A DNA stretch of 64,000 bases from Spirochaetia bacterium (GCA_963677925.2 CAXXYH010000003.1:64001-128000); one strand, 5' to 3'. Shown: positions 24,950 to 62,546, counted from the stretch's first letter. Notes: a model not told the origin generated them from the letters alone. A program made the numbers and translations.

Positions 24950-24987
24950 ACCGATCAAACCATAGTACACGGATGTACTATGGTTTT

Positions 24988-25788
24988 TTATCTTAAATTC
25001 TCTAAAATTTGCTCTCTAAAATAATTAATTGACTTTTCCAAACCTTCTATTGTCTTTGTTTCTAAAATTATTGATTTTACATCTGTTCGCGTTGATTCTA
25101 ATATTTTCATAATATCTATTTCTCCAGTTCCTAATGGAAGGTGATTATTTTTCCCAATCGCATCATGTAGATGAAGATGAATTATCTTTTCAATATTCTT
25201 CAAATAACAATTCTTATCTTTTTCTCCACTGGAAAAATCATGCCCGACATCCCAGGTAAGCCTAAAACTGTCATATTCTATTAATAAATCTACTGCTTCT
25301 TTAATAAACTTTTTATCCAAAACTCCGGTATTTTCTATACATATTTTTATATTAGTATTTCTTAATTTCTTATTTATCTTTTCTCCAAATTCTTTGCTTA
25401 AATCAAGATATCTTTCTTTATTTTCTTCAAATATAAATCTTTTTTCATCTGGTAAAGTGAAATATATTCCTTCATTCATATGCATATTCAGTATTTCTAT
25501 ATTTTTAATCAGAGATACTTCTATCAATTCATCGATTGTCTCTAAATAAGTATTTTTTATCTTTCCATTATAATCCCATATATTAAATTCTTCTGGAAGA
25601 TGAATTGAAAACCTAATGTTTTTATTTACATCTATTTTCTTTATATTTTCTATTTGTAGATAGGGTAAATTCATGTTTAGTTCTATTAAAGATAGTCCAA
25701 GCCTTTTACATAATTCTATATTTTCTTCAAAAGAGTACAGTTCAATAAGTGTAGGCATTCCTAAAAGGACGTTTTCATTTAATGACAT
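24988..25788 (-). CDS. Cassette: sugar-phosphate isomerase/epimerase (xylose-isomerase-like TIM barrel)
   Basis: IENT, WDVGHD, HLHLHD, HLPLGTG; start moved to MSLNE because the upstream frame runs through a hairpin. Confidence 0.8.
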   Translation of the reverse strand: MSLNENVLLGMPTLIELYSFEENIELCKRLGLSLIELNMNLPYLQIENIKKIDVNKNIRFSIHLPEEFNIWDYNGKIKNTYLETIDELIEVSLIKNIEILNMHMNEGIYFTLPDEKRFIFEENKERYLDLSKEFGEKINKKLRNTNIKICIENTGVLDKKFIKEAVDLLIEYDSFRLTWDVGHDFSSGEKDKNCYLKNIEKIIHLHLHDAIGKNNHLPLGTGEIDIMKILESTRTDVKSIILETKTIEGLEKSINYFREQILENLR

Positions 25789-25889
25789 ATTTTCTATTCT
25801 TCTCTTTGCCATGGACGGCAAAGAGTCTTCTTTCCCCCACAAAAAAATCTATTACTTTTAAAATATCCCAAATCTGAGAAACTTCGTGT

Positions 25890-26036
25890 ATTTAACGACG
25901 AAATAAGTTGCGCCCTCGATCCTGGAGCGAAGCGGAAGGAATTGGCGTGATTCTGGAGTGGAGCGCGATCAGCGCGGAACGTCTTTAGCCAGAATCATGA
26001 CAATAGACGGCGACAACTTCATTTCATTTGTTATGC
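25890..26036 (-). repeat. attC family A
   Basis: atttaac...gttatgc. Confidence 0.9.
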
Positions 26037-26047
26037 AGCTATTTCGA

Positions 26048-27067
26048 TTATGAAATTTTAGCTCCATTTCTATTTTTCTTTCCTAAGAAGTAACCGTAGA
26101 TTAAGTTAATTACTATTGCAACAGAAAACACTAATACTAACATTTTCAAGGAATATGAATTTCCTGAGCGCAGATTTAAAAATAAGATGCCAATAAAGAA
26201 GAGTATCGCACTTTCAATAGTAACAGCTAATTGTAACCAACTATGTGCAGAAAATGGCCATGGTAGACCTTGCTCCTTTCTACTCAAATTTTGATGAATT
26301 CTAAAACGAAATAATGCATACCCAAAAATTTGCAATATTAAACCTAATATTATATAGAGAATTCCTATTGCAAGTAGCATACTAATTCCATTTTCATTAG
26401 GCCAATTCATATTTTTCACTGTAATTGATCCAATGAAAGAGATTGCTAGTGTAAATATAGCTGTAGCCCAAGCAGGAACTTGCCATATTAAGTTATCGAA
26501 GTGCTTATATTCAGTACTATATGAAGGTGGATTCTCTTTTGTGTAGTGATTAAAAACTGAAAAATAATTTCTTAGTGACGTTCGTTTTAATTCATCTTTT
26601 TTCTTATCTTTATTTTGTTTTAAATTATATTTAGATTCTAATTCAGTCTTAAATTCTTCAAAGGTTATCGATGTATCTTCATGCCAATCAGACATAGATA
26701 CATCACCATGTTTAACTGTATGCATAATTGTGTCAGGAAATGTATAGATATTATGAGGGACATTTGGTTCTGTTGTAAAAATACCATTTTCATTTATTAT
26801 TTCTTCATACCATTTATTTTCTTTATTGAAAGCATAGATAACTTTTCCTGATTGAATTATATATGTTTCTCCAAAATATTTATGATAGTGAGGTTTTTGC
26901 CAAACACCTTCATCTTTAGATATAGTCATAATATATCCATATTTGCCTTTCTGATTTAAATAAAAACGTACTTCTCCATTTTTCATTTTCTGATTATAAG
27001 TCTTAATCCCAAACTTCAATTTTCTTATTGTTCTACTAATAATTCCTACCATTTTTTTCACCTTCAA
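26048..27067 (-). CDS. Cassette: cupin domain fused to a 4-TM domain
   Basis: HYH...ETYII.SG...PNVPHN cupin motif; four hydrophobic segments. Confidence 0.7.
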   Translation of the reverse strand: MKVKKMVGIISRTIRKLKFGIKTYNQKMKNGEVRFYLNQKGKYGYIMTISKDEGVWQKPHYHKYFGETYIIQSGKVIYAFNKENKWYEEIINENGIFTTEPNVPHNIYTFPDTIMHTVKHGDVSMSDWHEDTSITFEEFKTELESKYNLKQNKDKKKDELKRTSLRNYFSVFNHYTKENPPSYSTEYKHFDNLIWQVPAWATAIFTLAISFIGSITVKNMNWPNENGISMLLAIGILYIILGLILQIFGYALFRFRIHQNLSRKEQGLPWPFSAHSWLQLAVTIESAILFFIGILFLNLRSGNSYSLKMLVLVFSVAIVINLIYGYFLGKKNRNGAKIS

Positions 27068-27525
27068 CCTATTATTTACAAAATAGGTATAGAGATATTG
27101 CCTTTATTGAATATTATCATAATTACTGCAATTTTATTATTTTATTCTTGCTTGCTTCTTATCCTTTGTATATTTGTTCGTTTGTTAAGACCGAGCTTTG
27201 TATACAAATTTCTAATAACCACATGTACAAATTTTCTTGCATTTCTATCATTTTAAGGCTGTTTTCAGCCCCTGGGAACTATATTTTATAAATAATTCTA
27301 TCAAGCTTAGCTTGAAATAGACAATTATTAGTTAAGTCCTTGGACAGTTAAGACTTATTGATTTGTAATGTAATGAAAAATCAATAAGTCCCTTAATTTT
27401 TAAAACTCTTTTCGGTGTATTATCTTAATCAGGAGCTAATCTCATCTCTTTTTCTTAATAAATCATAGCTGTACACTAATCTATTAGAATTGTGTTGACC
27501 AAGCTACCGGCGTTACCTGTTGTCT

Positions 27526-27667
27526 GCATAACGACCAAATAAGTTGCGCCCTCGATCCTGAGCGAAGCGAAGGAATTGGCACTGTTTCTGAGTGAGGGCC
27601 ATTGCCCGAACGTCTTTAGCAGAAACCGTGACAATAGACGGCGACAACTTCATTTCATTTGTTATAT
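27526..27667 (-). repeat. attC family A
   Basis: gcataac...gttatat. Confidence 0.9.
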
Positions 27668-27695
27668 GCCGTTAATACCAGACCGCACGACGGAG

Positions 27696-37514: not shown

Positions 37515-37934
37515 TCCAGTATCGAGGGTTAGATGTTTCCTCTTTTAATAATCACAACCGAAAAGCAAATATTTATTCAGTAAAGAAATGGGTTGTAAGT
37601 GCGATTCTTTATCTTTCCAGTAATGAAATATTTATCAATTTGGATTAAAAATGGTAGCCGAAGAGCAGTAAAAGAAAGCAAGCATGCCTTAAAAATGCCA
37701 TGAGGACTATTTATAGCCTAAAAGATAAGTACAAAACCGAAAAACATGAATGGGGTGCGCGGGATGAGCGAGGCCCAGCGTGGAGAACAGGCGAATATGC
37801 GTGGGATTTCTCTTGAGCGCGGAAGCCTGTTCAATAAGGGCTCGAACCGTGAATATAGTGAAAAATGCTCATGCTTGAGGCCCTTATCCAGAAAGGCAAA
37901 AATATTATAAAGCCCTCCCCGGAGGGGAAGTTAA
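37515..37934. other. Gene-less structured cassette (ncRNA candidate)
   Basis: No ORF >=60 aa; cores gttaacttcc/ggaagttaac; nested inverted repeats. Confidence 0.7.
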
Positions 37935-38991: not shown

Positions 38992-39111
38992 AATATATTA
39001 GCTTACTCTTATATTACAACGAATTTGAGAAATTGCAATCATTTCTCTATTTACCATTATATAAATATTATTAAAAAAATAAATTTAAATTTTGAATTTC
39101 CCAATTATTGA

Positions 39112-39250
39112 AGATAACGACGTTTTGAGTAGCAAAATCGTTCGGCGTCTTCGCCGAATTGGCGCGATTCTGGAGTGAGGGCCATTGCCCGAACGTCTTT
39201 AGCCAGAATCGTGACAATAGATTTTGACTACTCCAAAACTCTTGTTAAAT
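39112..39250 (-). repeat. attC family A
   Basis: agataac...gttaaat. Confidence 0.9.
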
Positions 39251-39296
39251 GCCGTTTCTTACCAGACCGCACGGTAGAGCCAAGGTCTGGTTAATT

Positions 39297-40016
39297 CTAA
39301 TATGACTTTCTGAAATGTTCTAATATTTCTTTTGCAATATTCAGATTTTTATCATATTCAGTATCAAGCAAATTACTGATCAATTCACATGATTTTACCA
39401 ATACCCCCATCATGCTATCAACATAAGGTAATATCTTTGATTCATCAATCTTCTTAAATATCTCAACCCCGAGAGTATCTTCATTAAAATGTCTACTAGA
39501 TAAACTTATCACATTATTATGAGTTTCTTGGCAGAGCAAATTATAAATAGATAAATATAAATCTTCAGATTCAGCTTTCTCAAATTTTTCTATTATTGTT
39601 AAGACTTTGGCACCATCATTTATTAAATCATCAAATTCGTCTTTTGATTCTTGGTATTTTTTACAAATATCCTCTATATTTTTTAATTCTTCAATAAATC
39701 TATTTTCTTTTTTATCACATGCAGATTTCAGAATTTTATTTCGTTCTTTTAAATAAGATACCGCCATATCTTTATAATAATTTTCATCCTGAATAATATT
39801 AATCAAGTCGATATGGGCTTCTAAGATATTTCTAAATAATACAGTAACTGCTGTATACATATTTTTCTTCAATAAAATCATACTTGACGTACAATTCTCA
39901 TAAATTGTGCACAGTAAGGTCATCATAAAAAATTGCTGTGGGATTGTATTATCAAAAACATAGTTTTTTATTGTAGATTCTAATAATGTAATTACATTTT
40001 CTAAATATTTAATCAT
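39297..40016 (-). CDS. Cassette: DUF5677-like (HEPN-related) protein
   Basis: FRNILE...YNLLCQETH pattern. Confidence 0.65.
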   Translation of the reverse strand: MIKYLENVITLLESTIKNYVFDNTIPQQFFMMTLLCTIYENCTSSMILLKKNMYTAVTVLFRNILEAHIDLINIIQDENYYKDMAVSYLKERNKILKSACDKKENRFIEELKNIEDICKKYQESKDEFDDLINDGAKVLTIIEKFEKAESEDLYLSIYNLLCQETHNNVISLSSRHFNEDTLGVEIFKKIDESKILPYVDSMMGVLVKSCELISNLLDTEYDKNLNIAKEILEHFRKSY

Positions 40017-40034
40017 CTCTTAAATCTTCATTTT

Positions 40035-40496
40035 TTATTGTTTTTTAATTTCTTTTACTATACGAATAATGCCTTTTGCAACTTCAAAACTTGCTTCATC
40101 CATATTATCCCAAGTTGTTATCGGCTTCCCATCAGCTGGTAATGCTTGTAATTTACCAAATGGAGAATCTTGCCAAGCACATGGTCTTAAAATAATAGGT
40201 ATTACAACAGCTTCTTGAGCTTCATGTCTTTTTAAAGCTTCCTGCCCCTCAATTTCATAACAATATTTTGATTCTATAAAACTTGGACTCATAAATAGTA
40301 ATATTATAGCAGCCCGTTTTATTCGATTATCAATTTGGGTCTTCCATTCTGAGCCAGCAGGTATTTTCCTATCATGCCATTTCCGAATATAATTTTCTCG
40401 TTCATAAACAATCAATTGACGTCTCACTTCATCCATCAGAACTTCATCTTCATGTGCGTATGAAAAGAAAACTTCTATCATTATTATATTCTCCAA
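40035..40496 (-). CDS. Cassette: TIR-domain protein
   Basis: VFFSYAHED, WHDRKI..G, SPSFIESKYCYEIE, VIPIILRPC. Confidence 0.9.
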   Translation of the reverse strand: MENIIMIEVFFSYAHEDEVLMDEVRRQLIVYERENYIRKWHDRKIPAGSEWKTQIDNRIKRAAIILLFMSPSFIESKYCYEIEGQEALKRHEAQEAVVIPIILRPCAWQDSPFGKLQALPADGKPITTWDNMDEASFEVAKGIIRIVKEIKKQ

Positions 40497-40607
40497 CAGT
40501 TCATATTTCTAATAGCCCGTCGGCCGGAGGTCCGGGCTATTTCTTCCCTCATTTTACACCCAGAAACGAGAAACTCCTAAGATTTTTAGTATTCCTCCGC
40601 TTCATGC

Positions 40608-40745
40608 ATTTAACGACGATTTGAGTAGCAAAATCGGCCGAGTCTTCGAGGCTTGGCGCAGTTCTGGAGTGAAGCGCGATCAGCGCTGAACGTCTCCGCC
40701 AGAACTGTGACAAAGATTTTGACTACTCCAAATCTCTTGTTAAAT
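40608..40745 (-). repeat. attC family A
   Basis: atttaac...gttaaat. Confidence 0.9.
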
Positions 40746-40793
40746 ACCTTTCTTAACCAGACCGTACGGCGGAGCCAGGTCTGGTTTATCTTC

Positions 40794-44792: not shown

Positions 44793-44842
44793 TAAATTTC
44801 CTCTTTAAATTATTTTATCACTAAATCGTAAATCTTAAATAC

Positions 44843-45912: not shown

Positions 45913-46054
45913 TCTTCCTCTTTATAGCGAGCCAAGGACGGCGAGCAAAAAACCAACTAAAATCAGAAATTGTACATAGATTATGTGACGTTTTATTTTT
46001 CTTATTGTATTCTATCACACTCATCATTTTCCCAAAACTGTTATTTTTTCGTGC

Positions 46055-46194
46055 ATTTAACGACAATTTGAGCTGCCTGGCGGCGCGAGTCTTCGAGCGC
46101 ATTGGCGTGATTCTGGAACGTAGCGCGATCAGCGCGAAGTGTCTCTGCCAGAATCATGACAATAGCCAGGACTGCTCCAAATTTTTTGTTAAAT
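46055..46194 (-). repeat. attC family A
   Basis: atttaac...gttaaat. Confidence 0.9.
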
Positions 46195-47355: not shown

Positions 47356-47414
47356 ATTCTTCTCATCATAATTGTATTATTGATAATAACAAATGTATAT
47401 CATAAATTCCGTGC

Positions 47415-47547
47415 ATTTAACGACGAAATAAGTAGCGAAACTGTCCCGAGTCTTCGAGGGTTGGAGCGGTTCTGGAACGAGCGATCAGCGAGTGTCTCCG
47501 CCAGAACCGTGTCAAAAGTTTTGACTACTTCATTTCATTTGTTAAAT
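47415..47547 (-). repeat. attC family A
   Basis: atttaac...gttaaat. Confidence 0.9.
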
Positions 47548-47587
47548 GCTTTTCTTTATCAGACCGCACGACGGAGTCAAGGTCTGA

Positions 47588-48469
47588 TTATATATTACTC
47601 TTAATAATGATTGTGGTACCAACTCCACCTTCTTTATAAATATTTCCTAAATTTTCTTTAAAATATTCTATTCCTACATCTCCAGTGCTATGCATAGGAT
47701 ATAAACATCTTAAAGGTATCTCCTGAAATTTCTTCTTTGTATATACCAATAATCTTTCATTTGCTTGATGTAATTGTAAGCCTCCAATAATAAAACTTAT
47801 ATTATTATCACTCTTTTTTATGATATGATTTATTGTATTCACTATTCCTGAATGACAACATCCACATATTACAATTTTACTATTATCTTCAAGTTCAATA
47901 ACTAATGAAATATCATCATCCAATTGATCCTGTTCTTCAATTCCATTCTCTCTTTTTATTACTTTTTTTAACATTGGATTTAAAATCTCATAATCATTTT
48001 TTCTTGGGATTTCTCCTGTTATCCAAATATTATCAGTTATTCTATATTCATCTTTTCTCTTAATTATTCTGCCACTTTGTTCAATTCTTTCTATTTCTTT
48101 AGTATCTTGTATCCCAACATTTTTTTCAGTACCATCTTCCAATATTAATATTTTTTCTATTAACGTATCAGGATGGCAAACAACTCTAACATAGTCATTT
48201 GAATTCGTAAAAGCATATGATAATCCACCGGTATGATCAAAATGTCCATGACTTAAAACTATATAATCAATATCGCTTATATCTAACTTTAATTTTTGTA
48301 GATTTATTTTCAATCTTTCATTTTCTGGGCCAGTATCAAATAGTATTTTTATAATAGTTCCATCATCTAATTCATTCTCAACTAATGCTGAAAATCCTCC
48401 AGGAGCATATTCGTCTCCAACAATTGATTTATTATCAACTATTACCGTGATTTTAACCTGTTTTACCAT
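47588..48469 (-). CDS. Cassette: MBL-fold metallo-hydrolase
   Basis: LFDTG, SHGHFDHTGG, CGCCHSG. Confidence 0.88.
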   Translation of the reverse strand: MVKQVKITVIVDNKSIVGDEYAPGGFSALVENELDDGTIIKILFDTGPENERLKINLQKLKLDISDIDYIVLSHGHFDHTGGLSYAFTNSNDYVRVVCHPDTLIEKILILEDGTEKNVGIQDTKEIERIEQSGRIIKRKDEYRITDNIWITGEIPRKNDYEILNPMLKKVIKRENGIEEQDQLDDDISLVIELEDNSKIVICGCCHSGIVNTINHIIKKSDNNISFIIGGLQLHQANERLLVYTKKKFQEIPLRCLYPMHSTGDVGIEYFKENLGNIYKEGGVGTTIIIKSNI

Positions 48470-48619
48470 TTACAATATTTCCCTTATCTATTATCGAGAG
48501 TATAAACACTGATACAATCCTATAGCCCGTCGGCCGGAGGTCCGGGCTATTTCTTCATTCTTATACTAAACCCAATATACAAAATCGACTAACATTTTTA
48601 TGATTTATACTTTAAGTGC

Positions 48620-48756
48620 ATTTAACGACCAAATAAGTAGCGAAACCGGCTGAGGTCTTCCGAAGCTTGGCGCGGTTTCTGAGCGAGGAGCATTCGACGA
48701 GCGTCTCCGCAGAAACCGTGTCAAAGGTTTTGACTACTTCATTTGATTTGTTATCA
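48620..48756 (-). repeat. attC family A
   Basis: atttaac...gttatca. Confidence 0.9.
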
Positions 48757-48783
48757 AGAGCAATTTTCTTCATTTCTCGAATT

Positions 48784-49221
48784 CTATTTTTCCCATTCCA
48801 TTATGAATTCTATTTCTCCAGTATCTTTATCTATTGAGTCTGATATTATTTCAAATTTTTTATTCCTATAGAATCTTATACTTTTCTCATTCTTTTTATA
48901 TACTCTTAATTCTATTCTTTCTCGTTTTTCTTTTACGAAGTTTAATAATTGACTACCAATCCCCATACCTTGTATTTCTGTTAGTACAAAAATTGCTGCA
49001 AGATATTCATTTATCATTGATACGAACCCCAAAAGCTTTTTATCATTTTGGGCGATATAGGTTTCTGACTTTGGGATATATTCTTCTTTCATCATTGATT
49101 TATTCCTTTCCCAATATTCATCTGAAATAAAACTATGAGTTTCTATTGATACCTTATACCAAAGTTCAACAATATCATCTATATCTTCATGACTTGCTTT
49201 CGTTATCCTTACATTTTCCAA
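48784..49221 (-). CDS. Cassette: GNAT acetyltransferase (YjaB-like)
   Basis: THSFI, QGMGIGSQLL, NEKSIRFY. Confidence 0.88.
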   Translation of the reverse strand: MENVRITKASHEDIDDIVELWYKVSIETHSFISDEYWERNKSMMKEEYIPKSETYIAQNDKKLLGFVSMINEYLAAIFVLTEIQGMGIGSQLLNFVKEKRERIELRVYKKNEKSIRFYRNKKFEIISDSIDKDTGEIEFIMEWEK

Positions 49222-49342
49222 TAATTTACCTTTTAATATCGACGCAGTCTCTATTCCCAGCCCTAATGTTCGCTTCCACTGGGGTTTTTACTTTCAGTTC
49301 CGCTTCCATTGGGATTTTTCTTAATTATCTCTTTCCTTTTCT

Positions 49343-49588
49343 TTATGATACCTTCCACTTAATATCCAATTTAAGATGTTTTCTAGCGCAATCTGCCAAA
49401 TACAAATTGATCAATTGCTGATATTTTATTCCAGATTCCTCTGACATATCCTTAAAATAATCTATTGTATCTTCATCTAAGCGGATAGTTATCTGTTTCT
49501 TTAATTTCGATACATACGGATTCTTTTTTGCATTTGAAAAATCATAATGTTCTCTCATAATTTCATCCTCCATATTCCCTTGTTTCAT
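49343..49588 (-). CDS. brnA: BrnA-like antitoxin (true start probably MREHYDF)
   Basis: KKQITIRLD...YFK...YQQLINLYL. Confidence 0.85.
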   Translation of the reverse strand: MKQGNMEDEIMREHYDFSNAKKNPYVSKLKKQITIRLDEDTIDYFKDMSEESGIKYQQLINLYLADCARKHLKLDIKWKVS

Positions 49589-49847
49589 CCTTATCAGCTT
49601 TCCTTGCTGATATAATCCTTATTATTTCGTCATTTTCCCTATAACAATGACACACCACCAATACTTTTAAAGTTTGTGATAATCCCATAATCAAGAATCT
49701 TTCTTCATCTTCAGAATGATCCGGATCATGTATTATTAAAGCAGCTGGATCATAGAACACTGTTTTTGCTTCATCAAAGCTTACCTTATGTTTCTTTTTA
49801 TTGATATTATTCTTATTTTCATCCCATTCGAACTGGATATTTTTCAT
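49563..49847 (-). CDS. brnT: BrnT family toxin
   Basis: FEWDENKN..N..KH.VSF, IRIISARKA; start placed at MKNIQ behind the promoter. Confidence 0.88.
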   Translation of the reverse strand: MKNIQFEWDENKNNINKKKHKVSFDEAKTVFYDPAALIIHDPDHSEDEERFLIMGLSQTLKVLVVCHCYRENDEIIRIISARKADKDETREYGG

Positions 49848-49853
49848 ACTTAT

Positions 49854-49882
49854 AATGTACATACATTGTAGTGTTTTGTCAA
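49854..49882 (-). promoter_or_regulatory. sigma70-like promoter of brnTA (leaderless)
   Basis: TTGACA-17-TACATT, ATG 6 nt downstream. Confidence 0.7.
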
Positions 49883-50032
49883 TTTTTATATTTCATAATA
49901 ATCCCAGCCCTAACGCTCGCTTCCACTGGGGTTCTCTCACCGTTTCGCTTCCGCTGGCAGCTGAATTTCGTTCCCATATGGGTTTAAACTACAACAATTA
50001 TTTCATCAAATTTACACTGCGTTATTGGTTCT

Positions 50033-50178
50033 TGATAACGACGAAATAAGTTGCGCCCTCGATCCTGAGCCGAAGGCGAAGGAATTGGCGTGATTCTGGA
50101 GTGGAGCGCGATCAGCGTGGAACGTCTCCGCCAGAATCATGACAATAGACGGCGACAACTTCATTTCATTTGTTATAC
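50033..50178 (-). repeat. attC family A
   Basis: tgataac...gttatac. Confidence 0.9.
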
Positions 50179-50185
50179 GGATTTT

Positions 50186-50476
50186 CTATACTTTTTCCAA
50201 TAATTTCCCAGATACATATTTATGCAATATCATTGAAACCAGGGTTTGATATGGTAATCCTTCTTCCATTGCTTTTATCTTCAAATTCTTCAAATCTCTT
50301 TCTGATATTCTTATATTCATCCTTTTATCTTTTTTCATCGTAGCTTCAGCATATTTTTTTGCTTGAAGCCTATATTCTTCATTTTCTTCTATTTCTTCCC
50401 ATTCACCTTTCTCAAGTGAATTTATTAAATCGCGTTCTTCTTCATCTATCGGAGTAAACATATTTTCCTCTTTCAT
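50186..50476 (-). CDS. Cassette: CopG/RHH-type antitoxin
   Basis: KDKRMNIRISERDL..K.KA.EEGLPYQTL. Confidence 0.85.
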   Translation of the reverse strand: MKEENMFTPIDEEERDLINSLEKGEWEEIEENEEYRLQAKKYAEATMKKDKRMNIRISERDLKNLKIKAMEEGLPYQTLVSMILHKYVSGKLLEKV

Positions 50477-50760
50477 TCCTTTCCTCCATTCTTCAATAAT
50501 TTCTTCGTATATTCCCTACTCGGGTATATTGTCTTTAGAAATATCTCTTCACCTTCTTTATTTTCAACAAAAGGCACTATATATATATAATCATTATAGT
50601 TGATTAGATAAATTTTCTGATTTCCATATTTTTCTTCATTTGGATGCCTTAAGACTTTTACAACTTTTCCTTCAGAAATACACAATATAATTTCTTCAAA
50701 TGACATGTTTCGTTGTTCCTTCAGTATTTCATTCTTTTCATCATTCCAATTATATGTCAT
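50473..50760 (-). CDS. Cassette: BrnT-like toxin
   Basis: YNWNDEKN..LK..R..SFEEI, FLKTIYPSR. Confidence 0.85.
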   Translation of the reverse strand: MTYNWNDEKNEILKEQRNMSFEEIILCISEGKVVKVLRHPNEEKYGNQKIYLINYNDYIYIVPFVENKEGEEIFLKTIYPSREYTKKLLKNGGKE

Positions 50761-50766
50761 ATTATA

Positions 50767-50795
50767 AAGATAAGCTCACGTGTGCCTTTTGTCAA
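50767..50795 (-). promoter_or_regulatory. sigma70-like promoter of the TA cassette (leaderless)
   Basis: TTGACA-17-TATCTT, ATG 6 nt downstream. Confidence 0.65.
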
Positions 50796-50896
50796 TACTT
50801 TATATTTCTTAATTTTTTACGGAGTCTCGATTTAACCACAAATGGCCCACTAAACTATGAAATCTATCAATATTATTTTATCTAATTCTTAATTCC

Positions 50897-51034
50897 GTAT
50901 AACGACGATTTGAGTAGCAAAACCGGCCGAGTCAGCGAGGCTTGGCGCAGTTCTGGAACGTAGCGCGATCAGCGCGGAGTGTCTCCGCCAGAACTGTGAC
51001 AAAGGTTTTGACTACTCCAAATCTCTTGTTATGT
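50897..51034 (-). repeat. attC family A
   Basis: gtataac...gttatgt. Confidence 0.9.
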
Positions 51035-51598
51035 TTCAGTATCTCTATCTATTAAAGCTCTAATATTCTCTCGATTCTTTAATCTATTAATTTCTTTATA
51101 AAAAAATCTTAATGATTGTTCATTGAAAATGTCATGCATATATTCAAAAGCATCCTTAATTTCAGATGTTAATTCCATTATATCGACACTATCGTATTTT
51201 CTTATCATTTTATGAGCAAGTAAATTTCTTGTTGCATTTAGTTTCTTGCTTAATATTAATATATCTTCTTTACCTTCAAATTGAAAAGAATCTTTAATAT
51301 AACTGATTATATTGCCAATAGGGATATCTAAATTATGTTCTTTTATTTTCTTTGGATATGCCTTACATTTTTCAATTAAATCTATATACAATAATACCAA
51401 TTTTAAAATTTCTTTTTGCAATTGATTATAAATAAATACTGATGCTATTCTTCCTTCAATTGTATTTTGTTCAAACATTTGTGATGCTTTTTTATTTAAT
51501 TTCACATGTGGTTCAATATTCTCTATCCAGAGACGATTAGGAGTATCAATTAAATCTAGTTTCAATATTTCTTCATATTCCATATATTCTATCTCCAA
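51029..51598 (-). CDS. Cassette: hypothetical protein, HEPN-like RNLLAH
   Basis: RxxxxH motif. Confidence 0.6.
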   Translation of the reverse strand: MEIEYMEYEEILKLDLIDTPNRLWIENIEPHVKLNKKASQMFEQNTIEGRIASVFIYNQLQKEILKLVLLYIDLIEKCKAYPKKIKEHNLDIPIGNIISYIKDSFQFEGKEDILILSKKLNATRNLLAHKMIRKYDSVDIMELTSEIKDAFEYMHDIFNEQSLRFFYKEINRLKNRENIRALIDRDTET

Positions 51599-52434
51599 AA
51601 TCTATGATCGTATCTATAAATATTTTTCATATTTTCATAGTCAAATTGAAAAAAACCTCTATCATGAAAATCATATATCTCTTTTTCTACTTTAATACTT
51701 TCTATAATCTCAATTTTATCATTTTCAAAAGATTCAAAACAGGTATAGTCATCTAAAATAATTTCCGAGTCAATTTGAATCTTAAAATATCTAGAAATTG
51801 CTTTTCTATACATATATATTTTGTCATATGACGTAACCGCTTCTATAGGGACTCTACATTTTAAAATGTATGGAACACCATTATTCCTTAAAAATCTCCT
51901 ACAAATTTCTGGATTTAAACTAGTTACAATACCTAATAGCGTTTCACTCCCATATATTAAATAATGACATGAACCATCATGGTCAAAGCAATGAATATTA
52001 GAGCAAAAATTCAAGTTCATATCATTAATTCGGTTAGTATTGTTCTCTATTGCCTTCTGTATCTCTTCATCAGCAAATCCATCAAACATGGTTTTACATA
52101 TATATTCATAATCACTTTTTCTTAATATTTTTAAACTGGTAAAACCACCTTGAAATAGTTTAGTTGCATGATATCCGTAAATATTATTTAATGAATTTTC
52201 TATTAATTCAATTTGTATATCATTATCATAGAATTTATAATCAATCAAATAGCCGTCTATAATTTCTTCAATTACTGAATAGAAATCTAATCCACTTTGG
52301 TAAGGATCTATTTTCAATATCTCTTCTCTTACATAATCAAGAAGATACTTATTTATATGTTCTTCGAGCAAATTGATATATACTTCTTTATCATCTAAAT
52401 CAATAACATCATACATATTTATTATATTTCTCAC
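51589..52434 (-). CDS. Cassette: hypothetical protein (YHAT motif, ART-like fold possible)
   Basis: GYHATK, YGSE. Confidence 0.6.
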   Translation of the reverse strand: MRNIINMYDVIDLDDKEVYINLLEEHINKYLLDYVREEILKIDPYQSGLDFYSVIEEIIDGYLIDYKFYDNDIQIELIENSLNNIYGYHATKLFQGGFTSLKILRKSDYEYICKTMFDGFADEEIQKAIENNTNRINDMNLNFCSNIHCFDHDGSCHYLIYGSETLLGIVTSLNPEICRRFLRNNGVPYILKCRVPIEAVTSYDKIYMYRKAISRYFKIQIDSEIILDDYTCFESFENDKIEIIESIKVEKEIYDFHDRGFFQFDYENMKNIYRYDHRFWR

Positions 52435-52462
52435 TCATTTTATTCCAATTTTTCTTCTGTAA

Positions 52463-52601
52463 ACATAACGACGATTTGAGTAGCGAAACCGGCCGAGTCT
52501 TCGAGGCTTGGCGTAGTTCTGGAACGTAGCGCGATCAGCGCGGAGTGTCTTTAGCCAGAACTATGACAAAGGTTTTGACTACTCCAAATCTCTTGTTATC
52601 T
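52463..52601 (-). repeat. attC family A
   Basis: acataac...gttatct. Confidence 0.9.
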
Positions 52602-53241
52602 ATATTATTTTTCTTATCAAAATTCCTCGTTCTGCAAAATATTTTTTAAATAGTTCCAATTGTATTTTGTAATTTTGTTGAGTTCTTATTTCATCTCCTG
52701 AAGGATTATTAATATAAATAGTATTGTTCAAATTATCGACACCTGATACAACAACAAGATGACCACCTTTTTCCCCATTATATGTCATATCCGGTTTACG
52801 GATTAAATAATGTACCGACACAATAAATATATTGCCATCTAATGTTGCATTAAATATCTCATCTGTGTTTAAAGGTGAAACAGAGTTTGCATCTAACTGA
52901 AAACTATCCTTTAAATATTCACAAAACGGTACATAAAATAATCCATCAATACTTTCCTTATTAACTTTAGATCCACCATATTCAGTACATTCTTTTGCTA
53001 ATTGGATTATAGGTGGTGAATCAATCTTCCAGTATTCTAAAATCATTTTCAAACATGCCATTCCGCAAATGTTTTTAGCCCATAATTCATATTCTTTAAC
53101 ATTATTTGCTCCAGAATATTCCCATAAAGGATCATTTGTTGCTTGGATTTTACCAGATATAATTTCTCCTACTATCTCACGAGACATCCATTGTGAATAA
53201 TAAGGCATTTCATTAAGTATAATTTTTTGACTATTAACCAT
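52600..53241 (-). CDS. Cassette: C39-like cysteine peptidase (copy 1)
   Basis: PYYSQ, CGMACLKM, GHLVVVSG, INNP. Confidence 0.8.
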   Translation of the reverse strand: MVNSQKIILNEMPYYSQWMSREIVGEIISGKIQATNDPLWEYSGANNVKEYELWAKNICGMACLKMILEYWKIDSPPIIQLAKECTEYGGSKVNKESIDGLFYVPFCEYLKDSFQLDANSVSPLNTDEIFNATLDGNIFIVSVHYLIRKPDMTYNGEKGGHLVVVSGVDNLNNTIYINNPSGDEIRTQQNYKIQLELFKKYFAERGILIRKII

Positions 53242-53771
53242 TTTCCCAACTTAAAATTTGATAGACAATAATATAGAGCTTTATTCCCAATTTTTTTGGG
53301 TTAATTCTATCACCTAACATAATCATTTACATTTATTCAATAGCTTAGTGCTTTTGTATATTCATATTCTTCTTATTTACCTCATAATACGGTAAAATCT
53401 ATTCAAAGACATTAGATCTATTTCCGAATGTTCAGACCGAGCCTTATATACAAATTTCTAATAACCACATGTACAGAAATTCTTGTATTTTTTCATTTTA
53501 AAGCTGTTTTCAGACTATTGGAACTATATTTTATTAATTATTCTATATTGTTCTTTTGGATATAGGCAATTGTTAAGTAAGTCTTTAGCTGATAAATACT
53601 TAATGATTTTAAATGCAATTGAAAATCATTAATTTCCTTTATTCTTATAATTCTTATAGGCTTAAGATTTTAATAACAAACTGCTTTTTTAAAGAATTCT
53701 AATTGTATTAAGCTTGTACACTAATTCATTAGAAATTTGATGACAGAGTTATCCGCCTGTACCCGAATTAT

Positions 53772-53909
53772 AGATAACGACGATTTGAGTAGCGAAACCG
53801 GCCGAGTCTTCGAGGCTTGGCGCAGTTCTGGAACGCAGCGCGATCAGCGCGGAGTGTCTCTGCCAGAACTGTGACAAAGGTTTTGACTACTCCAAATCTC
53901 TTGTTAAAT
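53772..53909 (-). repeat. attC family A
   Basis: agataac...gttaaat. Confidence 0.9.
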
Positions 53910-53988
53910 GCCTTATTATCCAGACCGTACGGCGGAGCCAGGTCTGGATTTCTTCATTATTATTTTTTTGATATTAATAAAGTTTTTA

Positions 53989-55152
53989 TTAAACCTCTTG
54001 TATTAATTCATTTTTATAGAAATTTTTTAAACTTTCTTCATATGCTAAATATGGTCTTTTTATAGATTCGGTTGATAATTTTATTAATTCTGATAACCAA
54101 ATAATTAGATCAACTAATGCATTTTCAATTCTAAATTTATCTATTTCAAAATGTAACCCTTTATTAAATAAGTCTAAAAGACGATCAGCTTCATCCCCAA
54201 GTTCAGTTAATTTATTTGTTTCTTTTATATTATTTTCTTCAATTGTTTTTTCAATATATGCCCATATTCTATTTTTAAACTTATCATTTCCAACATCTCT
54301 CCCTTTCCATTTTTCTTTTTGTGCAGGGAAAAGGTAATTTGCAATTTTTTCTAAAAATCTTCTTCCAGATATTGCAACTTGAGCAAAATCATCCTCTGTT
54401 TCAGCATTTTTAAATACTCTTGCAGCAGAAGCTAAAGTTTCAAAAATCTTTGGATGAAGCTCTTCAATAAAAAAGCTGACGTCTGATGCAATTTCATCAT
54501 TTAATCCATTTAACTTAGAAAAAATATCTTTAAATTCTTCAACTCTTTTAAAATGTTCTAAACTATCATAATTATCAAAAATTGTTCTTCTTGCGCCTAT
54601 ATCTTCATAATTAACAATAAATCCATTTTTTTCGAAACAATTCTTTATGGAGATATCGGGATCTTCATTATCATTCATATGGTAAAAGATTGAGCATTTA
54701 TTTGAAATTAATCCATATTCTTCACATAATGAATTCCTAAATAATGCCAAATGTGGGCCATAATTAAAAATAACATCCATAGCTCCAAGATAAGTTTTAT
54801 CATCTCGTAAAATTACATCAATGTTAGAAGCAATTTCATATGTCATATTTTGAAAAACCCAACAAAAAACTGTTGCAGTTGTAAATGTACTTTCCAACTC
54901 TGTTTCTTTAAGCTTATTATATTTATGAGGTCTATAAACTTTTCTACAAACTTCTTCCAGATGAGCATAAGTTCTATTCTGACTTTGAGAAACAATTCCA
55001 TAAGTTAAAACGTCTCCTATCGAAAGCCTCATATGTCTCTTTGTATTTTGTAAAATGTTAGTTCTAAGTATTTTATTCATTATCGGAATACCATAAAATC
55101 CATCATACTCTTCATGATCTGAATTAAATAGAAAAGCAATATTCATACACAT
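53989..55152 (-). CDS. Cassette: hypothetical protein with HEPN/Abi-like C-terminus
   Basis: SGRRFLE...NRIWAY...NKGLH. Confidence 0.65.
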   Translation of the reverse strand: MCMNIAFLFNSDHEEYDGFYGIPIMNKILRTNILQNTKRHMRLSIGDVLTYGIVSQSQNRTYAHLEEVCRKVYRPHKYNKLKETELESTFTTATVFCWVFQNMTYEIASNIDVILRDDKTYLGAMDVIFNYGPHLALFRNSLCEEYGLISNKCSIFYHMNDNEDPDISIKNCFEKNGFIVNYEDIGARRTIFDNYDSLEHFKRVEEFKDIFSKLNGLNDEIASDVSFFIEELHPKIFETLASAARVFKNAETEDDFAQVAISGRRFLEKIANYLFPAQKEKWKGRDVGNDKFKNRIWAYIEKTIEENNIKETNKLTELGDEADRLLDLFNKGLHFEIDKFRIENALVDLIIWLSELIKLSTESIKRPYLAYEESLKNFYKNELIQEV

Positions 55153-55294
55153 CCCTTCGTCATAATTTTTTAATAAGAGTTAATTACTCCCCACAATCGC
55201 CCGTCGGCCGGAGGTCCGGGCGATTTCTTATTCCTTATATTACCCCCTAAAACGATTATCAGCTAATATTTTTATTATTACATTCTCTAAGTGC

Positions 55295-55434
55295 ATTTAA
55301 CGACGTTTTGAGCTGCCTGGCGGCGCGAGTCTTCGCGCGCATTGGCGTGATTCTGGAGTGCAGCGCGATCAGCGCGGAACGTCTATGCCAGAATCATGAC
55401 AATAGCCAGGACTGCTCCAAAACTTTTGTTAAAT
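55295..55434 (-). repeat. attC family A
   Basis: atttaac...gttaaat. Confidence 0.9.
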
Positions 55435-55520
55435 GCTATACCCAAACAACCCAATCCATAAAATAAAAATGTGGCGCAGCCCGAAGCCCGAATGGGCTGA
55501 GCATATAGCCCCTGTTATAG
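55435..55520 (-). repeat. Right half of split family-B att site
   Basis: aaaataaaaatgtggcgcagccc...catatagcccct gttatag. Confidence 0.8.
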
Positions 55521-55619
55521 GAAGTATTTTGGCTCTTGAGTCAGACCGTACATCGGAGATAGGGCTGGCCTCTTAAACATACAACTTTCAACTTTAACAG
55601 TATCCTAAAACAAACTTTG

Positions 55620-56747
55620 TCAATTAAAAGCATACTTCACTAAAGCTATTTCATTCTCACTATCACTACCTTTTTCAAATAAAAATAAGTTATCTCCAGT
55701 TTGAAGTTTTCTTACAACTTCGATGTCTTTCAAATCCTCATCAATAGTCCCAATCCATCTTGGACTATTTAACTCTCTTATATCATAAACAAAATAATTC
55801 CCGATTAAAATATTATTAAAATCAAAATCTAAATCAAAATAACTAAACAAGTTTATTTCATCTGTTGAATTACATTTTTGTAGAAATTCATATTTTTTTT
55901 CACTATCTAATTTTATTATGCTCCAAAAATACTCTTCTGAATTTAAACCTCTTGCTCCATCACTTACTATAATATCATTATATATATTAAATCCATTGTC
56001 CTCTAAACTGATAGAATTTATATCGACCAATTCATAATTATTAGAAATATTAGTAATATCATAAACAATCATTTGATTTGTTATTGTAAAAGGATTACCA
56101 TCTTTATCAACTTTAAGCTCACTTGAAAAAGTGTATAAATAATTTGAATTTAAGTAAATTTCTTTATCAATTACTCCTTCGAAAGAATCTAAATAATGTC
56201 TTTCAATTTCTAGCATATTATCAGCATCCAAAATTAATAATAGTTTATAGTATGAAAATGAATTAGAATCTAAAATATAAATTTTATTATCCATACATCT
56301 TAAACTTAAATAATAGGTAGTGTTTAAATTATAGGTATTATTTTCACTAATAGAATATTTAAAAGATGGATTTGTTATATCCTCAATCAAATATACCAGA
56401 CAATCCGTTGACCCTAGAAGATACAAATAATTTTCATAAATATACAATTGTTTAAAATCAGGAACAATATCATTATAATAATTTGAATTATCAACCCAAG
56501 GGATGGTGGAAACTTCAATCAATCCTTCCAAATCTATCAAGTGCACCATCCCATCAGTACTATAATATACTAAAACTTTAGAAGTCTCAGATATAAACGC
56601 AGAGAATGAATCTGCTTTTTCATCTAAAATAAGTTTTGTATCTTTAGAAAATATTTGATTGAAATGGTATCCATTTTGATAATATGGAAAAAAGTTTTTA
56701 CATGAGGTTATTCCTAATAATAATAAAAATAATAAAATCCTTTTCAA
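55620..56747 (-). CDS. Cassette: lipoprotein, probable beta-propeller
   Basis: Lipobox-like LLGITSC; repeated YDI-type strands. Confidence 0.7.
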   Translation of the reverse strand: MKRILLFLLLLGITSCKNFFPYYQNGYHFNQIFSKDTKLILDEKADSFSAFISETSKVLVYYSTDGMVHLIDLEGLIEVSTIPWVDNSNYYNDIVPDFKQLYIYENYLYLLGSTDCLVYLIEDITNPSFKYSISENNTYNLNTTYYLSLRCMDNKIYILDSNSFSYYKLLLILDADNMLEIERHYLDSFEGVIDKEIYLNSNYLYTFSSELKVDKDGNPFTITNQMIVYDITNISNNYELVDINSISLEDNGFNIYNDIIVSDGARGLNSEEYFWSIIKLDSEKKYEFLQKCNSTDEINLFSYFDLDFDFNNILIGNYFVYDIRELNSPRWIGTIDEDLKDIEVVRKLQTGDNLFLFEKGSDSENEIALVKYAFN

Positions 56748-56860
56748 TACGTTTCATTCCTTATATATTGACATAATATATCAATTTTAAATTTTATTCT
56801 TTTTTTCTTATTGCCCGTCGGCCGGAGGTCCGGGCGTCTTTCTCTTAGCCAAAATATTTC

Positions 56861-56954
56861 CTATAACGTCCCGGGGTTATATGACGTTTTTATTTTTTAA
56901 TTTTACCACCAATTACCCGTATTTACCATTTCAAACTGTTTTACCATGTTGTGC
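56861..56954 (-). repeat. Left half of split family-B att site plus linker
   Basis: ctataac gtcccggggttatatgacgtttttatttt. Confidence 0.8.
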
Positions 56955-57092
56955 ATTTAACGACGATTTGAGTAGCAAAATCGGCCGAGTCTTCGAGGCT
57001 TGGCGCAGTTCTGGAACGTAGCGCGATCAGCGCGGAGTGTCTCTGCCAGAACTGTGACAAAGATTTTGACTACTCCAAATCTTTTGTTATAT
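56955..57092 (-). repeat. attC family A
   Basis: atttaac...gttatat. Confidence 0.9.
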
Positions 57093-60283: not shown

Positions 60284-60419
60284 GTATAACGACGATTTGA
60301 GTAGCAAAATTGATCCGCGTCTTCGCGGAATTGGCGCGATTCTGGAGTGAGCGATCAGCGAACGTCTTTAGCCAGAATCGTGACAATAAATTTTGACTAC
60401 TCCAAATCTCTTGTTAAAT
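60284..60419 (-). repeat. attC family A
   Basis: gtataac...gttaaat. Confidence 0.9.
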
Positions 60420-60508
60420 GCTTTTGCCCAACTTACCCAATTCATAAAATAAAAATGTGGCGTAGCCCAAGGAGCGCTTAGCGACGAAGCAAATAACCCC
60501 TGTTATAC
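60420..60508 (-). repeat. Right half of split family-B att site
   Basis: aaaataaaaatgtggcgtagccc...aataacccct gttatac. Confidence 0.8.
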
Positions 60509-61638: not shown

Positions 61639-61739
61639 TATTACACCTCCAACTTTTTTATATCTAAAAATAAAAACTAAATATTAACTCGCCCGTCGGC
61701 CGGAGGTCCGGGCGTCTTATTCTTGTCAAGCTCATTGCG

Positions 61740-61830
61740 TAATAACGTTCCGGGGTTATGTGACGTACGGCGAAGCCGTATGTGGCGCAGCCCGAGGAGC
61801 GTAGTGACGAGCGAATAACCCTTGTTAGAC
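61740..61830 (-). repeat. Intact family-B attC-like site
   Basis: taataac gttccggggttat gtgacgtacggcGAAgccgtatgtggc...ataaccctt gttagac. Confidence 0.8.
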
Positions 61831-61879
61831 GATGTCACGAACCTTCTTCAAAGCCAAGCAACATGGATGTTGTTTGGCT

Positions 61880-62209
61880 TTAATCTATTAACATTTCCTG
61901 TAGCACATTCTTGACGAGATCTACTTCTTTTCTATTTATTTTACCAATCTTTTTAATTAATCTCTTCCTATCAACAGTTCTTAATTGATCTAAAACAATC
62001 CATCCATCTTTATTTTGAAACTTAACAGCTACACGAGTAGGATATGTATGTGATTTTGTTGTCATTGGAGCGATAATAATAGTCTGGATTGTTTCATTCA
62101 TTTCATTTGGTGAAATCACTAAACAAGGTCTTGTCTTTTTTATTTCATGGCCAACTGTTGGATCTAAGTTTATTAAATATACCTCATATTGATGAATTAC
62201 CATTCCCAT
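61880..62209 (-). CDS. mazF: PemK/MazF toxin
   Basis: NLDPTVGHEIKKTRPCLVIS, APMTT, DQLRTVD. Confidence 0.9.
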   Translation of the reverse strand: MGMVIHQYEVYLINLDPTVGHEIKKTRPCLVISPNEMNETIQTIIIAPMTTKSHTYPTRVAVKFQNKDGWIVLDQLRTVDRKRLIKKIGKINRKEVDLVKNVLQEMLID

Positions 62210-62445
62210 TCAAAATCACCCTGTTCAGTCAAATTGTCTAAAAGTAATGAATCATCCCCATTTTGATGCATCTTCATAAACTCTTCGGACCATCCTTCCC
62301 TTGGCTTTTTCTTTATTGGTCTAATCAGTATTTCTGTATTATGCACTTCTAATTCAACTTTTTCTTCAATATTTAACTGTTGCAAAATGCTCTTCGGAAT
62401 TCGTATTCCTTTTGAATTGCCTATAGGAACCACTGAAACTAACAT
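62197..62445 (-). CDS. mazE: AbrB/MazE antitoxin
   Basis: IGNSKGIRIPK; start MLVSV behind GAGG SD. Confidence 0.88.
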   Translation of the reverse strand: MLVSVVPIGNSKGIRIPKSILQQLNIEEKVELEVHNTEILIRPIKKKPREGWSEEFMKMHQNGDDSLLLDNLTEQGDFEWEW

Positions 62446-62460
62446 AATACACCTCTTTAT

Positions 62461-62493
62461 TGTAATTATATAGTAATTACATAAATTTGTCAA
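62461..62493 (-). promoter_or_regulatory. Consensus promoter with overlapping operator palindrome for mazEF
   Basis: TTGACA-17-TATAAT; tgtaattatatagtaattaca inverted repeat. Confidence 0.8.
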
Positions 62494-62546
62494 TCTTTGC
62501 TTGCCAAGGATGGCAAGCATCCTCTTTCTCTTAGGTTCGTGATTTC

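Follow-up and report, generated by a model that had tools for sequence, protein, structure and literature searches.

Matched hairpin pairs resembling CsrA sites bracket the cargo of integron cassettes in a Spirochaetia bacterium

Hairpins at the borders of integron cassettes

Four gene cassettes in a 64,000-nucleotide stretch of DNA from a Spirochaetia bacterium (GCA_963677925.2, CAXXYH010000003.1:64001-128000; the whole stretch is referred to as the window) each carry a pair of hairpins, one towards either border, whose loops expose GGA on the plus strand (class 2); seven further pairs in the same array end in a C-GGA-G apex (class 1). Judged by its sequence, the window is a sedentary chromosomal integron. 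An AT-rich cassette array (~30% GC) runs from ~19.4 kb to the right end of the window, with all of its large open reading frames (ORFs) on the minus strand. The repeat between cassettes (attC1) reads TAACGAC...TTGTTAT on the plus strand, has ends of the RYYYAAC...GTTRRRY type and separates cassettes of one orientation, and an integrase gene with the IntI-specific insertion lies beside the array. A profile built from 26 copies identified 43 attC1 sites in the 5.04-Mb genome, 31 in the window, 8 just upstream on the same contig and 4 at a locus on contig C4. The plus strand of attC1 is taken as the recombining bottom strand because it folds better in 41 of the 43 copies (-31.0 versus -25.4 kcal/mol; 133 versus 42 G.T pairs), in agreement with the orientation of cargo and intI. 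The integrase scores 382.9 bits against a TIGR02249 cut-off of 265 (match at C3:128526-129455), and its closest relatives, at 79% and 50% identity, belong to Spirochaetia genomes.

The features are listed below, in positions of the window unless a contig is named; z values come from DNA folding of each class-2 hairpin against 200 shuffles.

19474-62778, plus: attC1 array, 31 long sites of 110-195 nt; the plus strand is the better-folding bottom strand
24957-24986, plus: class-2 left hairpin, cassette 1; 13-bp stem, loop CGGA (aca-CGGA-tgt), z -8.67; begins 11 nt past the end of attC1, 3' of the cargo stop codon in the mRNA sense
24988-25842, minus: cargo ORF, xylose-isomerase-like TIM barrel (PF01261)
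25802-25825, plus: class-2 right hairpin, cassette 1; 9-bp stem, loop ATGGAC, z -5.33; ~13 nt upstream of the likely cargo ATG in the mRNA sense
42491-42509, plus: left inverted-repeat arm, cassette 2; pairs with 43518-43536, G.T wobble at position 10
42491-43057: second cargo ORF without Pfam match, cassette 2
42524-42549, plus: class-2 left hairpin, cassette 2; 11-bp stem, loop TGGA, z -5.08; overlaps the last codons of the ORF called at 42491-43057
43092-43445, minus: cargo ORF without Pfam match, cassette 2
43484-43504, plus: class-2 right hairpin, cassette 2; CAC-GA-GCC / AGGAC / GGC-GA-GTG with a tandem G.A mismatch, z -1.35
43518-43536, plus: right inverted-repeat arm, cassette 2; ATAA end at the crossover
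45105-45128, plus: class-2 left hairpin, cassette 3; 10-bp stem, loop CGGA, z -7.25
45148-45912, minus: cargo ORF, abortive-infection C-terminal domain (PF14355)
45927-45946, plus: class-2 right hairpin, cassette 3; GC-GA-GCC / AAGGAC / GGC-GA-GC, z +0.44; directly upstream of the cargo Shine-Dalgarno sequence
61825-61843, plus: left inverted-repeat arm, MazEF cassette; pairs with 62534-62552
61850-61881, plus: class-2 left hairpin, cassette 4 (MazEF); 14-bp stem including one G.T on the plus strand, loop TGGA; -11.7 kcal/mol on the plus strand, -10.4 kcal/mol on the minus strand
61880-62209, minus: MazF/PemK toxin
62197-62445, minus: MazE antitoxin; the ORF call to 62520 is over-extended
62498-62519, plus: class-2 right hairpin, MazEF cassette; 9-bp stem, loop AGGA/AAGGAT, z -5.71; 5 nt upstream (mRNA sense) of the -35 box of a promoter-like TTGACA-17-TATAAT sequence (62493-62465, minus)
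62534-62552, plus: right inverted-repeat arm, MazEF cassette
27678, 39262, 40757, 47559, 53920, 55541 and 60525, apex C-GGA-G on plus: class-1 left hairpins
28984, 40512, 42170, 48522, 55196, 56810 and 61688, apex C-GGA-G on plus: class-1 right hairpins (region 27678-61716)
C3:128199-129458, just right of the window, divergent from the cassettes: intI (TIGR02249)

All eight class-2 hairpins proposed in a first-pass annotation of this DNA were found where it had placed them, one pair per cassette, and its statement that the stems differ in sequence while staying complementary was borne out. The left stems are perfect or near-perfect over 10-14 bp, and six of the eight hairpins gave z values of -5.1 to -8.7, with 0-1 shuffles folding equally well. 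The right hairpins at 43484-43504 and 45927-45946 are non-significant alone, each consisting only of GCC/GGC, the tandem G.A mismatch and 2-3 outer pairs. They were accepted as hairpins because CGAGCC-loop-GGCGAG recurs elsewhere with covarying outer pairs (CAC/GTG, GC/GC, AAC/GTT and CC/GG in various cassettes). Complementarity between the left and right stems of a cassette was also considered; an 8-nt similarity of arms in the MazEF pair, with none in the other three class-2 cassettes, was dropped as chance. Rfam 15 gave no match at gathering score on either strand of the 64-kb window.

A motif scan over both strands of the whole genome returned 15 matches to ACAYGGATGT, six with at least seven further pairs and the other nine with at most three. 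The six long-stem hairpins comprise the four in the window, one in a duplicate of the MazEF cassette in an array on contig C4, and one outside any array (C4:10273). The right-hand motif, GCCA(N)GGAYGGC, matched 13 times, with four matches in the window, four in the region of the second array and five elsewhere. Solitary copies outside cassettes are rare, strong ones being nearly confined to cassette arrays. The sole strong ACAYGGATGT hairpin outside arrays (C4:10262-10293; 12 further pairs, loop TGGA) lies just past the stop of a minus-strand gene, with GGA again on the antisense strand.

The two classes pair within themselves. In the window all four class-2 left hairpins occur with class-2 rights and all seven class-1 lefts with class-1 rights, an outcome without mixing that has a chance of 1/330 if four and seven pairs are joined at random. 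The sample was widened to 131 inter-attC intervals from five genomes of the family by adding arrays from four genomes. An automatic screen assigned 30 class-1 pairs and 5 class-2 pairs, with 72 intervals bearing no hairpin, 19 one end only and 5 complex. Inspection by eye revealed that 16 of the 19 one-end intervals hold variants missed by the patterns, which raises the totals to ~37 class-1 and 15-18 class-2 pairs; the class of variant hairpins was assigned partly by eye, and many sampled cassettes are copies of one another, such that the counts overstate independence. No clean class-1/class-2 mixed pair was found in the 131 intervals, in line with the first-pass claim that the two kinds of end never mix. 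Real exceptions comprise two left hairpins that lack a right partner (class 1 in G006, class 2 in G007), together with an undecided case and two intervals classed as complex. Class matching is sufficiently explained by inheritance and movement of the cassette as a single unit.

Hairpins occur in 59 of the 131 intervals (~45%) of this one spirochaete family. Six of 10 further genomes of the family carry the class-1 right motif, clustered in arrays, and 50 genomes of other families in the class gave only three single matches, each with one mismatch. Among 80 loci that surround IntI relatives of many phyla, one alone, a Spirochaetia locus (L013), contained class-1 motifs, and class-2-like hairpins were limited to two isolated matches. 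A solitary CCCTCCCC-GGA-GGGGAAG hairpin was also noted at 37895-37925 of the window, in the right-hand position of an ORF-less cassette directly before the attC1 at 37932.

Conserved structure, position and polarity

Of 31 matches to the CA-NGGA-TG core in arrays, 20 were retained as unique class-2 hairpins. At each of stem pairs 3-9, 3-4 Watson-Crick pair types occur and mismatches are almost absent, while the two closing pairs CA/TG and the GGA are invariant. The outer stem of class-1 left hairpins covaries likewise (CAGACC/GGTCTG, CAAGCC/GGCTTG, CAAGCT/AGCTTG, CCAACC/GGTTGG), and the class-1 right hairpin is nearly invariant across genomes whose IntI are just 50% identical. Because stems covary around invariant loops and the class-1 right hairpin barely changes between distant genomes, the evidence points to a real structure under purifying selection on both stem and loop.

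The elements of a hairpin cassette follow a fixed order on the plus strand: crossover, short inverted-repeat arm, left hairpin, antisense cargo, right hairpin, pyrimidine-rich spacer, arm and crossover. Left hairpins begin 11-40 nt after the site (class 1, 17-18 nt after attC1 or 24-29 nt after a second site, attC2). Class-1 right hairpins end 74-81 nt before attC1 or, mostly, 30-33 nt before attC2, and class-2 rights end 31-36 nt before attC2 in most cases. Boundaries between conserved and variable sequence place the crossovers outside the hairpins by 11-40 nt on the left and 30-150 nt on the right. The hairpins were rejected as attC sites themselves on this account and for want of AAC/GTT cores.

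The attC2 site, of ~90 nt, defines the second array on contig C4, and it too folds better on the plus strand (-22.9 kcal/mol, z -3.65, versus -17.1 for the other strand). Its cassettes start and finish with cassette-specific inverted-repeat arms of ~20 nt that extend the R box. In 43 attC2-type cassettes the arm sequences differ while a G.T wobble at position 10 is kept on the plus strand; the arms often also show T.T at position 8-9 on that strand, regardless of their sequence. In a circular cassette the arms would pair and lengthen the attC2 stem. When the circular junction was folded in silico, all four cassettes tried gave the right hairpin, 10-14 nt, the arm-extended attC stem, 0-16 nt and the left hairpin. 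Three of the four class-2 cassettes of the window and several class-1 cassettes are of the attC2 kind. Cassettes of the two systems are interleaved in one array, since attC1 with short flanks is nested inside the loop of a split attC2 at the following composite sites.

42271-42490 with 43537-43631: composite site
55298-55515 with 56865-57089: composite site
60287-60503: composite site
62553-62778: composite site

The strand that carries GGA has the polarity of the attC bottom strand and is antisense to the cargo in 41 of 43 hairpin pairs examined, as the first-pass annotation had stated for the class-2 loops. Both exceptions hold the same 385-aa plus-strand ORF, probably an inserted element. 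Inverted cargo, tried as a means of separating gene from attC orientation, was accordingly uninformative.

Several observations bear on which strand folds. Non-Watson-Crick combinations at pairs 1-10, read on the plus strand, comprise five G.T/T.G, four A.G/G.A, three T.T, one T.C and no A.C, and the tandem G.A of the weak right hairpins also falls on that strand. For class-1 right hairpins the plus strand gives the better RNA fold in 29 of 32 unique copies (mean advantage 2.7 kcal/mol), and the G001 ortholog of the MazEF right hairpin has a C to T change that gives G.T on the plus strand. This strand evidence is consistent and not strong, resting on few independent substitutions. The ten nucleotides after the stem contain on average 5.9 T (class-1 right), 4.8 T (class-2 right) and 4.8 T (class-1 left) on the plus strand, compared with 2.0, 2.5 and 2.7 on the minus strand (background T 0.37, A 0.30). 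A plus-strand promoter in attC1 (TTGACT-16-TAAATG) was set aside as unusable, being limited to one attC1 subtype.

CsrA-like tips and competing readings

CsrA recognises GGA in a hairpin loop; the consensus from systematic evolution of ligands by exponential enrichment (SELEX) is RUACARGGAUGU, and that for RsmE is (A/U)CANGGANG(U/A). The genome encodes CsrA (PF02599, 90.8 bits, C4:2339507). Class-2 left hairpins match 11-12 of the 12 SELEX positions, and GGA occupies the hairpin loop in both the left-type core and the right types, CC-A(N)GGA(N)-GG. In all three flaB-type flagellin genes (G000 C4:2599100, 2348840 and 2347769, two of them near csrA), the leader forms a hairpin with CA-AGGA-TG or CA-AGGGA-TG at its apex, and a Shine-Dalgarno sequence that includes GGA follows ~20 nt further on. 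These hairpins are GGGACA-AGGA-TGTCCC, GGGCA-AGGA-TGCCC and AAGGCA-AGGGA-TGCCTT, followed by AAGGAGG or similar; the fourth Flagellin_N match in the genome has no such leader hairpin. The same leader arrangement underlies CsrA control of flagellin in Bacillus and Borrelia. Moreover, GACAAGGATGTC is identical between a flagellin leader and cassette hairpins of G007. A chance match at five free positions is estimated at ~1 in 1000, and the likeness of the class-2 apex to a CsrA site is on that ground taken to be real, as a resemblance only. It is closer than the first-pass annotation had suggested when it compared the loop with the SELEX consensus. Genome-wide, 63 hairpins have the class-2 core and at least four further pairs, 11 of them in arrays that make up 1.5% of the genome. 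General use of the class-2 left motif as a 3' hairpin was considered and dropped; of six copies of the core with seven or more further pairs outside arrays, five were inspected, and their orientation relative to genes was mixed and followed no rule.

We tentatively favour a model, possible rather than probable, in which the hairpins are protein-bound border stem-loops on transcripts of antisense polarity, each serving as CsrA site and terminator. Class-2 and class-1 pairs would be conserved border stem-loops of one lineage of self-contained cassettes that carry defence, toxin-antitoxin and similar cargo, with promoter-like sequences of its own at least in the MazEF cassette and the class-1 cassettes of attC1 type. 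The hairpins present, with bottom-strand polarity, an apex that stays constant within each class (CA-NGGA-NG for class 2, C-GGA-G for class 1), and they would act on antisense transcripts; we infer plus-strand transcription, CsrA binding and termination alike. The left border hairpin would stop antisense transcription entering the cassette and the right one antisense transcription leaving it, and both would offer a high-affinity site to a protein that reads GGA loops, most likely CsrA. Potentially toxic cargo may in this way be insulated and coupled to a global regulator. The CsrA-type apex, the strand bias and the T/C-rich plus-strand tails point to action on antisense RNA, as does the lack of hairpins in both ORF-less families of ~400-nt cassettes (12 copies in G001). 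So does the MazEF right hairpin, which lies upstream of that cassette's own -35 box and is therefore outside the mRNA rather than an element of its 5' untranslated region.

A number of observations weigh against this model. Class-1 left hairpins lack a strand preference (11 versus 11), and their C..A position would be U.G on the sense strand. Class-2 left tails show no plus-strand excess of T (3.7 versus 3.5), and plus-strand tails generally are T/C-rich with interrupted T runs rather than clean U runs. Promoters and terminators were read by consensus: a terminator scan of 39000-57000 flagged the left hairpins at 42524 and 45105, both on the minus (sense) strand, and neither of the two right hairpins in range, and no conserved plus-strand promoter was found upstream of left hairpins. 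The C-GGA-G triloops of class 1 fit the CsrA consensus only partly, and class-2 stems of 10-14 bp far exceed the 4-5 further pairs at the flagellin-leader sites. A DNA-level element would be expected to lie at fixed distances from the crossovers and to abut the inverted-repeat stem directly, as these hairpins do. Finally, the plus strand is also the recombining single strand, and the strand bias suits such an element equally well.

The closest competitor, which we regard as somewhat unlikely, takes the hairpins to be accessory single-stranded DNA (ssDNA) structures of the recombination substrate. With the bottom strand of the cassette single-stranded, above all in the excised circle, they would flank the base of the arm-extended attC stem and clamp or insulate the fold, or else be arm-type sites read by a DNA-binding protein specific for structure, such as the HARP-like N-terminal domain of a second, XerA-like recombinase. 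The plus strand is the folding strand of both attC1 and attC2, the G.T at arm position 10 recurs on it in the 43 attC2-type cassettes, the junction folds place the hairpins on either side of the long attC stem in all four cassettes, and hairpin-to-site distances are fixed; that spacing can also be mere homology of a conserved frame. The circular form would restore class matching exactly, and an ortholog or relative of the second recombinase (rec2) adjoins hairpin arrays in G000, G001, G006, G007 and G005. The class-1 apex is moreover a triloop of GNA type with a closing C-G pair, resembling the apex of attC2 (GAA/GCA/GTA), and GNA triloops are extra-stable in DNA. Against this, the hairpins appear dispensable for mobility: 72 intervals have none in the automatic screen, and the cassettes with the most duplicates are hairpin-less, ORF-less and ~400 nt long. 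Hairpins also occur in pure attC1 arrays at other spacing (G007_a), and nothing known would lead a DNA element to reproduce the CsrA consensus together with the apex of the flagellin leaders. The end-recognition code proposed in the first-pass annotation, if meant for recombination, found no support, the hairpins lying inside the true recombination sites and being absent from so many intervals.

Distinctly less likely, in our view, is a function in the sense mRNA, with the right hairpin as a 5'-terminal stabilising stem-loop or an anti-Shine-Dalgarno decoy (UCC/CCUCC loop) and the left as a 3' terminator or stabiliser. In five attC1-type cassettes a conserved promoter-like TTAGNN-18 nt-TA(A/G/A)(A/T)AT precedes the class-1 right hairpin by 10-12 nt in the mRNA sense and would place it at about +3 to +5 of the transcript. 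Right hairpins are 13-40 nt upstream of the start codon in three of the four class-2 cassettes, and the association with protein-coding cargo, the two terminator-like class-2 lefts and the possible U.G of class-1 lefts agree with the sense strand as well. Yet in the MazEF cassette a promoter stands between right hairpin and gene, and several attC2-type cassettes look the same when read by eye. On the sense strand the mismatches turn into A.C and tandem U.C/C.U, a U tract is absent after class-1 hairpins and right hairpins, and no known factor reads CNUCCNUG loops. Inert inheritance, as leftovers of cassette making or of an ancestral frame with swapped cargo that are tolerated without present function, would account for the same frame with different cargo, the same cargo in different frames and a left hairpin deleted in one lineage. 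We consider it improbable, given the covariation of stems around invariant loops in the 20 unique class-2 hairpins and the near-invariance of the class-1 right hairpin at 50% IntI identity. Subterminal hairpins at both ends, a single strand and variable cargo also recall IS200/IS605-type transposons or those of repetitive extragenic palindromic (REP) elements with their REP-associated tyrosine transposases (RAYTs). This origin is extremely unlikely and was rejected: the Y1 (HUH) transposase PF01797 has no match in the 99.6% complete genome, whereas 6 of 14 control genomes matched, strong copies are nearly confined to integron arrays, and the ends coincide with integron-type crossovers.

Cassette construction, a second recombinase and significance

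The cargo of hairpin cassettes is largely defence- or toxin-like (Abi_C, TIR, HEPN, Mrr_cat, SduA_C, MazEF), with several ORFs lacking a Pfam match, and its homology relations suggest that the hairpins mark seams of cassette construction, since homology between cassettes breaks at or near them and frame and cargo are separable. The window cassette at 42.4-43.6 kb and one at G001 6051-6827 have unrelated interiors within a common frame of both arms plus the right hairpin (89% over 65 nt and 80% over 69 nt). A cargo with a metallo-beta-lactamase fold occurs both in an attC1 frame and in an attC2 frame, 75% identical between the two and with its class-1 pair retained. For a toxin-antitoxin-like two-gene module (49343-49862), the C4 array holds a 79% homolog with class-2 hairpins on either side; the homology ends near the feet of those hairpins, at a distance of ~1 nt on the left side and 7-10 nt on the right. 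The copy in the window is instead enclosed by a unique pair of 29-nt direct repeats, at 49255-49283 and 49902-49930. The repeats read CCCAGCCCTAAYGYTCGCTTCCACTGGGG, and a second CGCTTCC copy follows each.

The C4 array (G000 C4:1138043-1160300; L003, L101) is headed by a 357-aa tyrosine recombinase, co-directional with the cargo. It scores 232.5 bits with the XerA-type model (cut-off 220) and 194 against a cut-off of 265 with the integron-integrase model; because this second match misses its cut-off and falls in two pieces, the protein appears to lack the IntI insertion. Its N-terminal domain of ~60 aa is confidently modelled as beta-beta-alpha-beta-beta-alpha, with a sub-threshold HARP match as the sole domain match. 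The catalytic core dominates a fold search of the model (VchIntIA 2a3v, XerA), which did not identify the N-terminal domain. G000 and G001 differ in their first cassette yet share a conserved junction between it and the recombinase, the signature of a candidate attI-like site. Orthologs of 52-96% identity are present in 6 of 10 family genomes and distant relatives (38-45%) in three more, adjoining hairpin arrays where neighbourhoods were viewed. The C4 array looks like an integron-like platform with a non-IntI recombinase. A bolder proposal, which we hold to be unlikely, assigns the hairpin pairs to a second integron-like system that has not been described before. In it, a XerA-like recombinase would capture folded ssDNA cassettes at a three-hairpin site (right hairpin, extended attC stem, left hairpin), and the GGA tips would be protein-read accessory arms that also mark points of cargo exchange. 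As a variant reading, cassettes may recruit host CsrA through the tips, which would link defence cargo, in its expression or its mobility, to the flagellar/CsrA circuit.

Further features of the arrays were recorded. The IntI encoded just right of the window has an N-terminal extension of ~105 aa (L001:1199-1513) before the model-matched region, common to its closest relatives (matches cover residues 1-419). A non-coding repeat of 187 nt (73% identity) lies within the long non-coding tails of three cassettes, at 27243-27429, 53488-53674 and 63685-63871; two of these cassettes, 52600-53774 and 62785-63975, are near-duplicates. The two ORF-less ~400-nt families occupy much of the attC2 array at G001:C9 ~465900-486600 (L092, L093), and two relatives are present in the G000 C4 array.

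Comparison with known elements sets these hairpins apart. In form they look like CsrA/RsmA hairpins, such as BS1 of the hag/flaB leader and the RsmZ/CsrB stem-loops, sharing GGA at the tip, closing CA..UG pairs and a class-2 apex identical to the three flagellin-leader hairpins of the genome. They differ from CsrA/RsmA hairpins in that the GGA strand is antisense to the only genes present, in stems of 9-14 bp rather than 2-7, and in having one hairpin at each end of a 0.6-1.2 kb unit, where known targets have two sites 10-60 nt apart with one over the Shine-Dalgarno sequence. Like attC sites of the Vibrio cholerae repeat (VCR) type, they fold on the bottom strand, keep structure while sequence varies and sit at cassette borders of an intI-linked array; unlike them, they have neither R''/R' cores nor a crossover, lie inside the cassette, number two per cassette and are absent from most cassettes. 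Palindromes of REP elements or bacterial interspersed mosaic elements (BIMEs) and intercistronic stem-loops are also short, GC-rich and imperfect, lie just outside coding regions and could stabilise or terminate transcripts. The cassette hairpins, in contrast, are restricted to arrays, have no RAYT transposase, conserve the loop rather than the stem foot and come in matched left and right types. Arm sites of the lambda Int type flank a core site at fixed distances, and here too a neighbouring recombinase has an extra N-terminal domain; the cassette elements would however be folded ssDNA hairpins, and the HARP-like domain is a sub-threshold Pfam match.

Integron cassettes are usually described as a gene plus attC, with nothing else conserved. 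In the literature searched, supplementary files aside, no description was found of cassette-border hairpins, of CsrA-type sites in cassettes or of XerA-like cassette arrays. What appears to be new is an integron cassette with a conserved, matched and covarying pair of border stem-loops. Hairpin cassettes have a further conserved layer, made of covarying structure on both sides of the cargo; it comes in two matched classes, has the polarity of the recombining strand and ends in the motif that CsrA, a global regulator of the cell, would read on flagellin mRNAs. Action as RNA would make the hairpins the first element carried on cassettes to connect integron cargo (here largely defence and toxin genes) with a global regulator that works post-transcriptionally. 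Action as ssDNA would enlarge the definition of the integron recombination site. Either way, the breaks in homology at or near the hairpins offer a concrete place to seek the mechanism of cassette assembly, a long-standing question.

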